Virus record (IMG/VR): IMGVR_UViG_2728369593_000011
Direction: 5' to 3' (one strand)
Length of the DNA: 21,675 bases
Source: a virus
Lineage: Duplodnaviria; Heunggongvirae; Uroviricota; Caudoviricetes
Under the pieces are notes generated by a model. It made no database searches, was not told where the DNA came from, and saw only the letters and a list, made by a program, of their open reading frames with translations. The translations under genes were made by a program, and so were the position numbers. Below, one piece after another: positions 13,694 through 19,147 of the stretch. Positions within the stretch are counted from its first letter, which is position 1. Each line of letters opens with the position of its first letter.

Positions 13694-15548
13694 TTATGAT
13701 GCCGGTGCATTTATCTCCAGCACCAGACTTTCTATCTCAACGCCATACGCTGCATTTTTTGTAACATCCGTCAGCGTCAGCGCATTCAGTCCCAGTGTCA
13801 GACTGTCTTTTATAACCTGGAATGCCGGGCCAGCCACTCCATTCAGTTTCGGAGTAACCGTGGCACTGCCGGCGGTGAACACCAGCTCCGAGCGTCTGCC
13901 AGTCGTTACCGTAATCGCCGAACTCCCCCAGCTTCGTGTTTCCGGCTTTCCTGTCGATGCATCAGATTCACTCTGCCGTCAGTGGTCTGAGTGAAGTACG
14001 ACATCAGGAACGGATTACCGGTACCCGTCATCGCCACACCATCAGGAACGGGAGCATCCGTATACAGATAAATCCCCAGCCCGAACTGATTGTTGGTCAG
14101 TGCGCCTGACAGGCGGAACTTACAGGTCAGTCTGCCGCCCTGTGTCAGCAGGGTAATTGCGTCATCCACCGGATGCGTCAGGGACCAGGTTTTATTGCTC
14201 TGCTTGGTGATCTTAAATACACCATCTGACAACTGAATTCCGCCATCCTTAATGCTCCAGCCCTGCGCAGCAGCATCTCCGGCTGTCGGCAACAGGGAGA
14301 TTGTGCGTACGGATGCATCTTCAGACGGCCCCGATGGCGTGTCGCCGCCGGGCGAGGGTTTGATTTCCGGTGCCTTACCACTAATGAAGGCTAAGGTGCG
14401 ACCGGCTACGTTCAGAATAGCAGTTGCCATACGATCGGGAATAATGCCACGACGCGCCCATGAGCTGAAATGCGTCGGGCGATTTGATGATACCCAGTTT
14501 TTGTTCGTTCGGGATGCCGAACCGTAATAACCAGACCCGGCAATATCAGGATCTTCTGACGGGTTGTTTGTCGGTGTATTAACTCCGCTACCATCGGTCA
14601 TAAAGGGAACAAAATAAATCTGCTGGGATTCTTTACCTTTATATGCACCATATACCACTTCATATTGCGTACCGTGTTCTTGTTTCCACGCGTATGTCGT
14701 GTCGCCACAAAGTCCAGGGGACTGATGCCGGACTTCCACCGTCGACACTGCGCCGCCAGCCCGGCAAGGTCAGCACGGAACTGCTGTACCATTGCAAGAA
14801 ATGCTGCTGGCTGCTGGGCGTAACTGGCATTCGTCATATCGAATTCCCCCTGCATCCAGCATATCGCCAGCAAAACGTTTTTCGGGTTTTTCTGCAATGC
14901 TGCCTTCGTGCGGAAAAGCAGATCCTGATATAACGGCTTACCCACTCCCCAGCGAGCCGAATCCTGACTGGCCCCCGTGGACTCGCTGAATGTCCCCTCC
15001 GTGCCCTGGGTGAATGCCGAACCACCACGACAGCATGGTACCAGCAGGATCCCCGCGTTATTCGGGATATACGGGAGCAGTTTTTTGGCAATATGTAAAC
15101 CCTGGCCGACACAGCCGTACTGCCCTTTGCTCAGGTCAGCCCTCGGATGATTCAGCGTACTCATATCCTGCACATCATGCAGACAGTGGTCAGCCGGAAT
15201 AATATCGTTATATCTGCAGGCAGCCCCGCCCGGCGTCACTGTACTGCGGCGCGCCAGCTGTTTAATGCGCGGATCCGGAGCATCGTATGAATCCGGCAGC
15301 GGAAGCCCTTCACCGTAAGCCATGGCATTGGATTGCCCGGCCAGTACGATGACGTAGTACCAATCCGGCTCAGATGAAGGGCCGACCTGTGGCTCTCCTT
15401 CAATAGCCACCGCCTGCATCAGTGTGTACGGCGTAATGGCAACCGGTCCGCCGTATGGCTGCCAGCCCTCTTTCAGTTTGTGTGTCAGCTTTTCCGCAAG
15501 GTCTGACGGCGACGCCGCCCTGACAACATCGTAATGTTTAATCGACAT
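13694..15548 (-). pseudogene. nanS: Prophage-type sialate O-acetylesterase (NanS-p-like), fragmented by at least two frameshifts
   Basis: Track ORF 14598..15548 has a prophage NanS-p-like N-terminus (MSIKHYDVVRAASPSDLAEKLTHKLKEGWQPYGGPVAI...) and an esterase motif VIVLAGQSNAMAYGEG. The protein continues in another frame (13906..14748, ...TTYAWKQEHGTQYEVVYGAYKGKE...) with a junction near 14700, then in a third frame (13694..13882). GGGAGAAA RBS before ATG 15548. Confidence 0.7.
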
Positions 15549-15634: not shown

Positions 15635-15663
15635 AAAAAAAAAGGCTAGCGCAATGCGCAGCC
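15635..15663 (-). terminator. Rho-independent terminator (minus strand) between the cargo block and nanS-p
   Basis: Minus-strand GGCUGCGC-AUU-GCGC(U)AGCC (8-bp stem with 1-nt bulge) followed by UUUUUUUUU (plus-strand A-run 15635-15643). Confidence 0.5.
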
Positions 15664-16092
15664 AGAACTCACAAGGAAAATGATAAAAGGAATAACACTA
15701 GTGATGTACGCATGGCGCCTCCCGCTAAGTTCTGCAATGATCAAACAGAACTCGCTACGTGCCCTTAAAACTCGATCATTTAGCCCCTCCAAGGAGGATT
15801 CACCATGCGGTTGATTTTTTAATAAACAGTAAACAAAAAAGTCAAGAATTATTCATTCTGTTCTTTCATCATCGGCCACAGCAATACCACAATGCCGCAG
15901 ACCAGAGCGCCATCAGTCAGTACCAACATTATCCTGCTGGTGAAATCCATCATCACCATCACTAAAAGCAGGATCACAACAGCAAGCAGACACAGTTTAT
16001 AAAACAATGTTCAGAAAACGCATTCAGCATGCCTAAGGTTCTATTCCTACGAATAGCCAACTTGCAACTTAAAATATTATTTATGCAGCCAA

Positions 16093-16335
16093 TTAAATTC
16101 TGGTCCTTACAATATCAACCTGAAGATTCTTATCTTGTGCTGATTGATAAATGACAAACCTTTTACTACCTGCATTGAAAGAAGTAGACAAAACCAGACA
16201 ATTATCATAACGAGCAAGAACATAATACCAACCATCATTATAATTAATCATTTCATATTCTTTCTTAAACTGCGGTTTGTAATATCCTGTCAGAAATGAA
16301 AAAAGCCAAAAATATGCCACAAAAGCAATCATCAC
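16093..16335 (-). CDS. Hypothetical protein (80 aa), probable C-terminal continuation of the upstream membrane protein across a homopolymer frameshift
   Basis: ORF (V)MMIAFVAYFWLFSFLTGYYKPQFKKEYEMINYNDGWYYVLARYDNCLVLSTSFNAGSKRFVIYQSAQDKNLQVDIVRTRI begins 5 nt after the previous ORF's stop, one frame offset. Confidence 0.4.
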   Translation of the reverse strand: MMIAFVAYFWLFSFLTGYYKPQFKKEYEMINYNDGWYYVLARYDNCLVLSTSFNAGSKRFVIYQSAQDKNLQVDIVRTRI

Positions 16336-16339
16336 AATC

Positions 16340-16852
16340 TCAAAAAAAATGTTTTTTTATAAATGGCTTATCATAGAAGCATGATACCGATAAAAATCGC
16401 CCATAAGATCTTATCGAAATTGTAACCGCCAGCGCAATCGCTGCTGACAGTAGCAAAAGAGGTACCTGAATCTTCTGTCTCAATATAGAAAACTCAATAA
16501 TTGCCGGCACAAACAATAATTCCACAGCAAAATAAAGGCGAAATACATTTAGCTCTTGCATAGAATGTTTTCTTTTCACTGCGAAAAAGAATACAACACC
16601 AATACCCCAACCGATAAGAAATATAGCAATGACGATAACTGCAAAAAATAAACTTCTGGCAACATCATCAACACCTGCACCTACAATCCACCATGGGAAG
16701 CCGTAGTAAAAAGAAGTACCCCATCCATAGAAATAAGCACTCCCCCATCCAAGGCATCCCATGTAGGCAATAAAAAGTGAAGAACTCCTGAGCAGCGCAC
16801 CATCCTTCATAACCACCCCAATACAAGATGATAACATTGGCTTACAACTCAT
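16340..16852 (-). CDS. Hypothetical polytopic membrane protein (AT-rich cargo gene downstream of PR'/tR')
   Basis: 170-aa ORF rich in aromatic and hydrophobic segments (...GWGSAYFYGWGTSFYYGFPWWIVGAG..., ...FFAVIVIAIFLIGWGIGVVFFFAV...). Likely start at ATG 16810 (MKDGALL) preceded by GGGGTGG. Ends at a TGA inside an A7-CA-T8 tract. Confidence 0.5.
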   Translation of the reverse strand: MSCKPMLSSCIGVVMKDGALLRSSSLFIAYMGCLGWGSAYFYGWGTSFYYGFPWWIVGAGVDDVARSLFFAVIVIAIFLIGWGIGVVFFFAVKRKHSMQELNVFRLYFAVELLFVPAIIEFSILRQKIQVPLLLLSAAIALAVTISIRSYGRFLSVSCFYDKPFIKKHFF

Positions 16853-16949
16853 AACAAAAGCAATTCAATGCCGTCAAGAGGTTACAGGCTAAAAAAACTC
16901 TATTACATAGCAGCCAGCATGTTTACCGTACAAGTACAACTCAGGGCAT

Positions 16950-16977
16950 AAAAAAAACCCACTCGGCAGCGGGTTTA
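16950..16977 (-). terminator. tR'-like rho-independent terminator downstream of Q
   Basis: Minus-strand AAACCCGCU-GCCG-AGUGGGUUU (9-bp stem with one G-U pair) running into a U8 tract; about 50 nt downstream of the predicted PR' start. Confidence 0.6.
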
Positions 16978-17009
16978 TACATTTTTTACAACATACCAAA
17001 TTTGCATGA

Positions 17010-17038
17010 AGTATATGGCTTTTAATCCAGTTTTGCAA
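17010..17038 (-). promoter_or_regulatory. PR'-like late promoter (sigma70 -35 TTGCAA / 17-bp spacer / -10 TATACT) overlapping the 3' end of Q
   Basis: On minus strand: TTGCAA (plus 17033-17038), 17-nt spacer, TATACT (plus 17010-17015). Position matches lambdoid late promoters. Confidence 0.4.
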
Positions 17039-17711
17039 TATTTTGCTGTAAAAATGCTGCCTTTTGTTTTGAACGTGTTCTCGTCACAAGCAATAAAGCA
17101 TCACTATCAAGCTGTAGAAAAATGTGCTTCATTGCAACCCAGCGTTCAGTAAATGTCTCGGACCAGTTTTTTGTTGTCACTCCCACCAATGATGCCAGTG
17201 TCTGGTATTCATAGGCCTCACGCCCTGCAAGTTCGCTCTTCACATCCTGTGCAGCCAGCCAGATTAACGTCTTCAGGCGATCCAGTGTCTTACCTGCAAT
17301 TTTTCTGTTACTTAACAAATCTTTAAACTCGCTCCATGCCCATTGCGTTATGGTGACCTGATGCCCCCATCGAACGCTTTCGCTGTAACACCAAAGCAAC
17401 CATGCTTTCTGATGTTCATCGAGAGACAAAACCGCGCGGCGCCATGAAGAGGTTGAGAATTCAACCGGGCTGACCAAAGCAATGGATGAACCTTTTGCGT
17501 ACGACTGCTTACCGGAAGTCGGCGTATTATCCAGCGTAATCATCTTGCCAGTTACCACATCCAGAATGCGCGGCTTCTTTCGTTTGTATGTACCAGTATC
17601 AAATTGTGCATGCTCCTGCCAGGCTTCGAGCTGGCCTTTCGTTGCTCCGTTCAAGTCAGCAGTAGCTGCCATAAGTTGCTCACGAACATACTGTAAATAT
17701 TGGGTATTCAT
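17022..17711 (-). CDS. Late-gene antitermination protein Q (not lambda-Q or Q21 type)
   Basis: 229 aa from ATG 17711 (MNTQYLQYVREQLMAATADLNGATKGQLEAWQ...LDEHQKAWLLWCYSESVRWGHQVTITQWAWSEF...) with AAAGGA RBS. Sits between the rusA/ylcG nin genes and the lysis cassette, with promoter and terminator immediately downstream. Family call is from context and recalled annotations. Confidence 0.7.
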   Translation of the reverse strand: MNTQYLQYVREQLMAATADLNGATKGQLEAWQEHAQFDTGTYKRKKPRILDVVTGKMITLDNTPTSGKQSYAKGSSIALVSPVEFSTSSWRRAVLSLDEHQKAWLLWCYSESVRWGHQVTITQWAWSEFKDLLSNRKIAGKTLDRLKTLIWLAAQDVKSELAGREAYEYQTLASLVGVTTKNWSETFTERWVAMKHIFLQLDSDALLLVTRTRSKQKAAFLQQNIAKLD

Positions 17712-18184: not shown

Positions 18185-19147
18185 ATGAAAAAAAGTGTCA
18201 TCGCTGGCGTCTTTATTGCTCTGTCATTTACCACGTGTTCAGCTATCGCGAACAGCCTTGCATTATCATTAGCAAATGATGATGCAGGGAAGTTTCAACC
18301 AATACTTAATGATATTTATGGCAATAAACATGAAAACAGAGATGATTACTCACAAGGCTTATTTCTGGGATATAGCCACGATATCTCAGACTCGAGCCAA
18401 TTATCTCTCCATATTGCGCAAGATATTTACTCTCCATCAGGCAGTAATAAAAGACACAACACAGCTGTAACTGGAGACAGAGCTTTTAGTGCATACACTC
18501 ACACTGGTATTGAATGGAACTCCCTTGCGAATGACTGGATTCGCTATCGATTAGGTACTGACATAGGTGTTGTTGGCCCCGACGCAGGCGGTCAGAAAGT
18601 ACAAAATAAAGCTCATGAGATTATTGGGGCAGAAAAATATCATGCATGGGATGATCAAATAGAGAATCGCTACGGTTATACTGTAAAAGGGATGCTATCC
18701 ATGACACCAAGTATGGATATTTTAGGTGCTAATGTTGGATTATACCCTGAAGTTTCTGCTGTTACTGGAAACTTATTTCAATATGTAGCATATGGCGCAA
18801 CCATTGCCATTGGTAATGATAAAACCTTCAATTCGGATAATGGCTTTGGTCTGCTGGCTCCCCGTGGTTTAATGCATATGTCCGATACAAGCGGATTCAA
18901 ATACAAGATTTTTGCAGGTATGGAAAGACGAGATGTCAATCGCAACTATACTCTCGAAGGAAAAACAATACAGACGAAACAAACAACAGTATCGCTAAAC
19001 AAAACTGTTGATGAATATCAAGTTGGCGCAACAATTGGGTATGCACCTGTAGCCTTCACACTAGCATTTAATAAAGTAACATCAGAATTCAAGACAGGGG
19101 ATGACTATTCATTTATAAATGGAGCAATCACCTCTTTTTTTAACTGA
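18185..19147 (+). CDS. lpxR: Outer-membrane lipid A 3'-O-deacylase LpxR-like protein
   Basis: 320-aa ORF with signal peptide MKKSVIAGVFIALSFTTCSAIA. Counting from the predicted mature N-terminus (NSLALSLANDD...), N9, D10, S34 and H122 fall on the LpxR active-site positions as I recall them (Asn9, Asp10, Thr34, His122). AGGAAG RBS; AT-rich codon usage. Confidence 0.65.
   Translation: MKKSVIAGVFIALSFTTCSAIANSLALSLANDDAGKFQPILNDIYGNKHENRDDYSQGLFLGYSHDISDSSQLSLHIAQDIYSPSGSNKRHNTAVTGDRAFSAYTHTGIEWNSLANDWIRYRLGTDIGVVGPDAGGQKVQNKAHEIIGAEKYHAWDDQIENRYGYTVKGMLSMTPSMDILGANVGLYPEVSAVTGNLFQYVAYGATIAIGNDKTFNSDNGFGLLAPRGLMHMSDTSGFKYKIFAGMERRDVNRNYTLEGKTIQTKQTTVSLNKTVDEYQVGATIGYAPVAFTLAFNKVTSEFKTGDDYSFINGAITSFFN

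Follow-up and report, generated by a model that had tools for sequence, protein, structure and literature searches.

A well-studied relative of the system described here is the late promoter of phage 82, pR'82, which was characterized by the Roberts and Hochschild laboratories and consists of a qut site with a Q-binding element (QBE), a sigma70-dependent pause at +25/26 and a terminator, t82. The QBE lies between the -35 and -10 elements, and the segment from -31 to +30 suffices for engagement by Q82 (PMC4914094). The 82 pR' RNA starts with AAA; sigma70 then rebinds a -10-like sequence that includes an extended -10, a GCC discriminator occupies +15 to +17 and is followed by an AT-rich stretch, and the paused RNA ends with U at +25, with pausing at +25/26 (PMC5001585). 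Each single G/C-to-A change at +15 to +17 halves the half-life of the 82 pR' pause, and the triple change cuts it about 5-fold (PMC5001585). Short, terminated PR' RNAs have been documented for lambda, 21, phi80, 82, P22 and StxS (PMC7547250).

Within the window (the whole stretch of 21,675 nucleotides of viral DNA that we analysed), the locus at the end of gene Q is very likely the late-gene control module, with PR', Q-loading site and tR', of a lambdoid prophage with a phage 82-family Q. Elements of this kind are already known; this one is a form of the well-characterized phage 82 system that has a short leader. It shares with pR'82 the Q family (PF06323), the TTGCAA hexamer, a 17-nt spacer that contains the Q stop codon, the AAA start and the extended -10-like repeat at +6 to +14, as well as TGTA at +23 to +26 with U at +25 and an intrinsic terminator in the leader. 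The window differs from phage 82 in the -10 hexamer (TATACT versus TATATT), the pause element (TGgTATGTT versus TGaTATTTT) and the discriminator (GTA versus GCC), and from +15 onward the two leaders show no sequence relationship. In the window the terminator extends to about +54, compared with about +78 in phage 82, a figure derived from loci whose Q gene is identical to that of phage 82.

The predicted arrangement also resembles lambda PR'/6S/tR' in having a constitutive late promoter beside Q, a sigma70-dependent, promoter-proximal pause at which Q loads, and a leader that is terminated when Q is missing. However, the Q proteins are unrelated (lambda Q is PF03589), the lambda pause is at +16/17, and the lambda leader is 194 nt, compared with about 53 nt here. 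Likewise, StxS of Stx phages is a short, constitutive PR' RNA that ends at tR' in lysogens, but it arises by processing of a 258-nt leader, is bound by Hfq and has demonstrated targets, and the Q type of these phages differs from that of the window (PMC7547250).

Gene Q and the promoter at its 3' end

The Q protein belongs to the Q82 family (PF06323; E = 1.1e-91, 306.8 bits), and its gene is 89.6% identical at the nucleotide level to phage 82 Q (X92588). Over the 1.6 kb surrounding Q, identity to Escherichia phage 434 (OL657226; genome paper PMC9119081) is 99.9%. The phage 434 record labels the hairpin a terminator and Q a Q82-like antiterminator, and leaves PR' without annotation. The window as a whole is not phage 434, given an overall identity of 96.8% with many gaps. 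The stretch that spans lpxR, Q, the terminator and the first cargo gene is 99.2% identical to prophage Sp3 of O157:H7 Sakai, and the 281 bases around PR'/tR' are present at 99% identity or higher in 611 complete E. coli genomes. The moron lpxR (lipid A 3'-O-deacylase, PF09982), at 18185-19147(+), is located between the nin region and Q and runs opposite to the phage genes, a placement common to phage 434 and Sakai Sp3. DLP12, the region swapped into phage 434B, was dropped as an 82-type comparator; its Q is annotated as lambda-type (127 aa). We found no structure of a Q82-family protein in papers or the PDB, and no solved structure matches Q by sequence.

Genes in this part of the window are on the minus strand. 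Read directly on that strand, the elements follow in the order TTGCAA, AACTGGATTAAAAGCCA, TATACT, TCATGC, AAATTTGGTATGTTGTAAAAAATGTAT, the hairpin AAACCCGCU-GCCG-AGUGGGUUU and T8 (Table 1). The preliminary description had proposed a sigma70-like promoter overlapping the end of Q, which our analysis confirms on this strand, where TTGCAA/17/TATACT straddle the Q stop codon; a promoter and terminator scan also reported both elements where they had been placed. The promoter site scores 9/12 matches in the scan. Pairs of promoter hexamers alone are at chance level, with 7 sites in 3 kb against 8.5 expected from shuffled sequence, and since they are no commoner than in shuffles, the PR' assignment requires evidence beyond the hexamers. 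The composite family motif, TTGCAA-N17-TATAYT-N6-AAA-NN-TRNTAYNNT, has a single match in the window, at 16990-17038(-), with 0 expected (100 shuffles). A small ORF encoding MQIWYVVKNV, whose first codon at -3 precedes the predicted start, lacks a ribosome-binding site; we attribute it to chance.

Table 1. Positions of the late-control elements in the window and of isrJ-type leaders in other loci
Feature	Position	Strand	Basis
Gene Q, phage 82-family antiterminator, 229 aa from MNT start	17022..17711	minus	Pfam and nucleotide identity
Q stop codon TAA (protein end ...AKLD)	17024-17022	minus	direct reading
PR' -35 hexamer TTGCAA (-35 to -30), within the last Q codons	17038-17033	minus	promoter scan
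PR' spacer AACTGGATTAAAAGCCA, 17 nt, includes the Q stop	17032-17016	minus	direct reading
PR' -10 hexamer TATACT (-12 to -7)	17015-17010	minus	promoter scan
Predicted +1 (about 900,033 in Sakai); transcript begins AAA	17003	minus	register by alignment to 82-type loci
Predicted sigma70-dependent pause element: TG (+6,+7), G, TATGTT (+9 to +14), extended -10-like repeat	16998-16990	minus	register with 82 pR' (PMC5001585)
Discriminator GTA (+15 to +17)	16989-16987	minus	alignment
Predicted pause and Q-loading site, U then A (+25/+26), within TGTA +23 to +26	16979/16978	minus	register with 82 pR' (PMC5001585)
Intrinsic terminator tR': stem +28 to +49, GC core +31 to +46, 9-bp hairpin, U8 +47 to +54	16976-16950	minus	scan, fold, OL657226
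Predicted Q-independent leader RNA, about 52-54 nt; counterpart of lambda 6S RNA	16950..17003	minus	from +1 and U-tract
isrJ-type leader, L113 (Gifsy-1, NC_010392)	2501-2607		
isrJ-type leader, L006	754-827		
isrJ-type leader, L005	755-831		

Conservation of the layout among Q82-family loci

The Q protein led to loci in 20 species genomes and 80 viral contigs, which represent Escherichia, Citrobacter, Klebsiella, Raoultella, Enterobacter, Leclercia, Salmonella and others; further loci were collected by DNA similarity. More than 100 distinct loci from many Enterobacteriaceae share the order TTGCAA, 17 nt, TATAYT, 6 nt, AAA at +1 and TGnTATnnT at +6 to +14. Every Q82-family gene collected precedes this common layout, in which the -10 is TATAYT or a close variant, the start is usually AAA and +15 to +17 is usually GCC. 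Comparison with phage 82-type late regions, as the preliminary description had suggested, was thus decisive, revealing both a shared layout and a Q of the Q82 family.

The -35 region TTGCAAAA is invariant in an alignment of 29 diverse relatives. The -10 column, which lies in non-coding DNA, reads TATATT, CATATT or GATATT in relatives, and after +17 there are several leader types without sequence relationship to one another. The PF06323 Q of phage Flotzy is divergent, and in this phage the entire promoter is intergenic, about 30 nt past the Q stop, and is still conserved. Coding constraint therefore fails to explain the conservation of the -35 region.

Two viral contigs carry a Q gene identical to phage 82 Q (X92588) over 690/690 nt, from which we infer that their sequence represents that of phage 82. 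These contigs read TTGCAA-AACTGGATTAAAAAGCA-TATATT-TCATAT-AAATCTGATATTTTGCCAATGTTGTAC..., and loci with an 82-identical Q read AAATCTGATATTTTGCCAATGTTGT at the start, an exact fit to the published facts on 82 pR'. The window is identical to them at 30/35 positions from -35 to -1, at 11/14 from +1 to +14 and at 8/16 from +15 to +30, and this alignment therefore sets the +1, the pause element and the expected pause given in Table 1. Within the spacer, 15/17 positions match. The spacer of the window is the expected location of the QBE, and we assume from this identity that Q would bind there.

At 17003-16990(-) the window reads AAATTTGGTATGTT, an AAA start followed by the -10-like repeat with its extended -10 TG. 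Among 128 distinct relatives, +6 to +8 is TGA or TGG in 113/128, nearly all have TATnnT at +9 to +14, and TGTA is the commonest tetramer at +23 to +26. The core of the preliminary description, a sigma70 late promoter at the end of Q with a terminator close behind it, is supported by homology to the experimentally dissected pR' family of phage 82 (PMC5001585, PMC4914094); the pause element at +6 to +14, the part that would make the region Q-dependent, had been overlooked. Fold prediction yields a 5' leader hairpin at +8 to +27, which is AU-rich and, judged by eye, is not kept in other compact leaders, and we did not retain it. The conserved TGTA is better explained as a pause site than as part of that hairpin.

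The discriminator is GCC in 95 of the 128 relatives and GTA in 9, all of the latter belonging to the 434-type lineage. At +15 to +17 the window has GTA in place of the G/C-rich GCC, which in 82-type modules governs the strength and position of the pause; the discriminator is a variable feature that modulates the pause and does not define the system. By analogy with 82 pR', GTA may weaken or shorten the pause relative to GCC, and a shorter pause in 434-type phages is reasonably predicted from the discriminator mutagenesis (PMC5001585). Given that phage 434 is viable, the GTA variant works.

The sequence itself shows the elements, their exact register, their conservation with the Q82 family and the fold of the terminator. 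The start site, pause, Q loading and readthrough can be inferred by homology, and we propose the following sequence of events. The sigma70 holoenzyme would initiate constitutively at 17003(-) from TTGCAA/17/TATACT. Sigma70 would then stay on the polymerase and rebind the extended -10-like TGgTATGTT at +6 to +14, holding the complex, scrunched, at approximately +25/26. When Q is present, it is predicted to bind the site in the promoter spacer and to load onto the paused complex with the help of NusA. The Q-loaded polymerase would ignore the hairpin starting 3 nt later and further terminators in the operon, and transcribe the cargo genes, nanS-p, the lysis genes and the head genes. When Q is absent, as in the lysogen, the polymerase would release an RNA of about 53 nt at the U8 tract.

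Alternatively, the TTGCAA hexamer, which is palindromic, may be read on the plus strand as part of the CII-activated antisense promoter paQ, in the box TTGCAATATTTTGC at 17033-17046, the antisense RNA of which would lower Q in the lysogeny decision. We consider this reading quite unlikely. There is an exact TTGC-N6-TTGC at 17033-17046(+), as in lambda paQ, where such a box sits antisense within the 3' end of Q. In the GenBank entry for phage 434, the same hexamer is assigned on the opposite strand to a CII site and to the paQ -35, and several E. coli relatives retain the box, among them one (L003) whose codons differ at this place. However, TTGYN6TTGY is at chance frequency in the window (4 found versus 5.3 expected), and the box is kept in only 33/128 distinct family members, whereas TTGCAAAA is invariant. 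In lambda pRE the -10 lies 12-13 nt after the second TTGC. At that distance the plus strand reads GCCTTT/CCTTTT, a very poor -10. The site thus differs from lambda paQ in having no credible -10, a match at chance level and a box that is not conserved across the family. PR' and paQ may both be present in E. coli phages, but paQ does not chiefly account for the locus.

The terminator tR' and the short leader

The terminator stem AAACCCGCU/GCCG/AGUGGGUUU occupies 16976-16955 with GCCG as its loop, and the T8 run ends at 16950. The terminator folds at -12.1 kcal/mol (z = -4.7), and 0/200 shuffles fold as well; the predicted leader RNA folds at -15.3 kcal/mol (z = -3.6). The preliminary description had placed a terminator soon after the promoter, giving a Q-less RNA of about 55 nt, and with +1 at 17003 and the U-tract at +47 to +54 this holds to within 1-3 nt.

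We surveyed leader length with a simple terminator finder over 56 distinct family members. The first U-tract ends at +51 to +55 in a compact class and at +59 to +82 in most others, and in a few it was later or was not found. Besides the 434 type and Flotzy, the compact class has members in Scandinavium, Superficieibacter and an Enterobacteriaceae MAG, and in every compact-class relative the hairpin core is at +31 to +46. The pattern TAT-NN-TG-N13-AACCCGCY-N5-GYGGGTT was found in at least 120 viral contigs of IMG/VR; among the matches listed there are about 75 distinct sequences with variable loops, and the TTGCAAAA promoter precedes nearly all of them. When the spacing was lengthened by one base, the pattern was found in only 18 contigs. 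The prevalence in at least 120 contigs indicates that the short leader is a common, position-conserved form in the family rather than a peculiarity of the window. The tight arrangement emphasized previously is real with respect to the short leader, but its compactness is not special, given the hairpin at +31 to +46 in those contigs.

Among Q genes with 97-100% identity to phage 82 Q, a comparison of L077 and L201 with L089 and L091 shows two kinds of leader, the 82-type of about 78 nt and the 434-type of about 53 nt. As some contigs pair a Q that is 97% identical to that of phage 82 with a 434-type leader, we conclude that Q alleles and leader types recombine near +15. The exchange junction, at about +15, is right after the conserved pause element.

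A further reading, which we regard as highly improbable, takes the promoter match as fortuitous and the hairpin either as an insulator before the cargo moron or as the site where the early Q transcript from PR ends. In its favour, the hexamers alone are at chance level, the hairpin is flanked on both sides by A-runs/T-runs and so could act in both directions, and the same terminator and cargo module follow a lambda-type Q in phage 2B8. Against it, the non-coding -10, +1 and pause element keep their sequence and register from genus to genus, unlike their flanks, which excludes a purely fortuitous promoter; the Flotzy promoter is conserved although wholly intergenic, and the 2B8 copy of the hairpin is degenerate.

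Full-text literature searches with the leader and terminator sequences matched only unrelated papers, and no Rfam family reached its gathering score anywhere in the window. A match of the leader (16946-17015(-)) to STnc240 was rejected (28 bits versus a gathering score of 55, E = 0.04, driven by the terminator); it may be only a resemblance of terminator and A-tract. Amino-acid operon leaders, which appeared at a permissive E-value, were also rejected as sub-threshold and terminator-driven.

The main value of these results is in annotation, as they place PR', the start, the pause/Q-loading site and tR' of 434-type prophages, including O157:H7 Sp3, to the base. To this the survey adds that the short leader of about 53 nt is common in the Q82 family, that the exchange junction is near +15 and that GTA is a natural variant. 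The textbook mechanism is unchanged by these findings. The GTA discriminator, together with a hairpin 3 nt after the predicted pause site, may make this the tightest natural test bed for the speed with which Q82 confers resistance to termination.

Leader RNAs and expression of the cargo block

IsrJ, a 74-nt RNA of Salmonella, has been detected by primer extension and is transcribed from a promoter of its own (PMC2330248). We found that leaders immediately behind Q82-type genes of Klebsiella and Enterobacter phages match the Rfam model of isrJ (RF01393) with 63-73 bits. In Gifsy-1, homology to the 82-type module begins exactly at the -35 hexamer TTGCAA and extends through the isrJ terminator, and the module keeps CTGGATTAA, a relic of the last codons of a Q gene. 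On these sequences, IsrJ is an 82-type PR' promoter, leader and terminator. A promoter of the 82-type family thus fires in vivo and gives a short terminated RNA, which is indirect support for the PR' of the window.

IsrJ resembles the element in the window in its promoter architecture, in the homology of the first ~14 transcribed nucleotides and in being a short terminated RNA. It differs in that its 74-nt leader is of another class, and in that the Gifsy-1 module is detached from its Q gene; RF01393 gave no match in the window. In Gifsy-1, anrP is directly upstream of isrJ, an 82-like AntQ is located about 840 nt further up, and holin and endolysin genes are downstream. Because of these downstream genes, the isrJ promoter may be a real Gifsy-1 late promoter and the loading site of AntQ.

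The leader of about 53 nt could also function as a constitutive prophage sRNA in lysogens, by analogy with StxS and, on present evidence, IsrJ, but we consider such a function unlikely. The Hfq-CRAC candidate table for O157 Sakai lists no sRNA (no EcOnc candidate) at the Sp3 PR' leader (PMC4104026), which also counts against the PR' assignment itself. If the leader does prove to be an sRNA, it is one that 611 complete E. coli genomes, including O157:H7 Sp3, carry at 99% identity or higher.

It had also been proposed that this arrangement silences the cargo block in the lysogen. We find this doubtful, given a promoter-like site after tR' and an abundant Hfq-bound RNA in O157 Sakai Sp3. Specifically, the scan identified an extended -10 promoter-like site (TTGTTA, 18 nt, TGtTATCAT) at 16857-16828(-), after tR' and before the first cargo ORF. 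O157 Sakai Sp3 carries the same module as the window, and in uninduced cultures the spacer after its cargo gene (ECs0816...ECs0818) was the top-ranked Hfq-bound intergenic region (PMC4104026). The Hfq-bound candidate EcOnc13, on the late strand (about 187 nt; Sakai 901332-901382), corresponds to approximately 15,650-15,700(-) in the window, a region in which Rfam gave no family match. Thus, on the basis of the 16857-16828 site and the Hfq-bound RNA of Sp3, the cargo block is probably self-expressed. For nanS-p and the lysis genes, tR' is expected to block PR'-driven transcription when Q is absent.

The promoter-like site before the cargo ORF overlaps a TTGYN6TTGY box at 16844-16857, itself at chance level, which is annotated as a CII site in the phage 434 record. 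In Sakai, EcOnc13 has the convergent EcOnc32 nearby. The membrane-protein cargo gene (16093-16852(-)), one ORF of 744 nt in both phage 434 and Sakai, is represented by two ORFs in the window, and the same holds for nanS-p (13906-15548(-)), which phage 434 has as one ORF of 1851 nt. The split in the cargo gene adjoins an A8/T7 run at approximately 16344-16360. Both split genes may be either frameshifted pseudogenes or the result of sequencing errors.

In phage 2B8 (L010, 1382-1600), a lambda-type Q (PF03589) and a lambda-like PR' are followed by a degenerate 434-type terminator and the same cargo gene. This arrangement indicates that the terminator and cargo block move between phages with different Q families.
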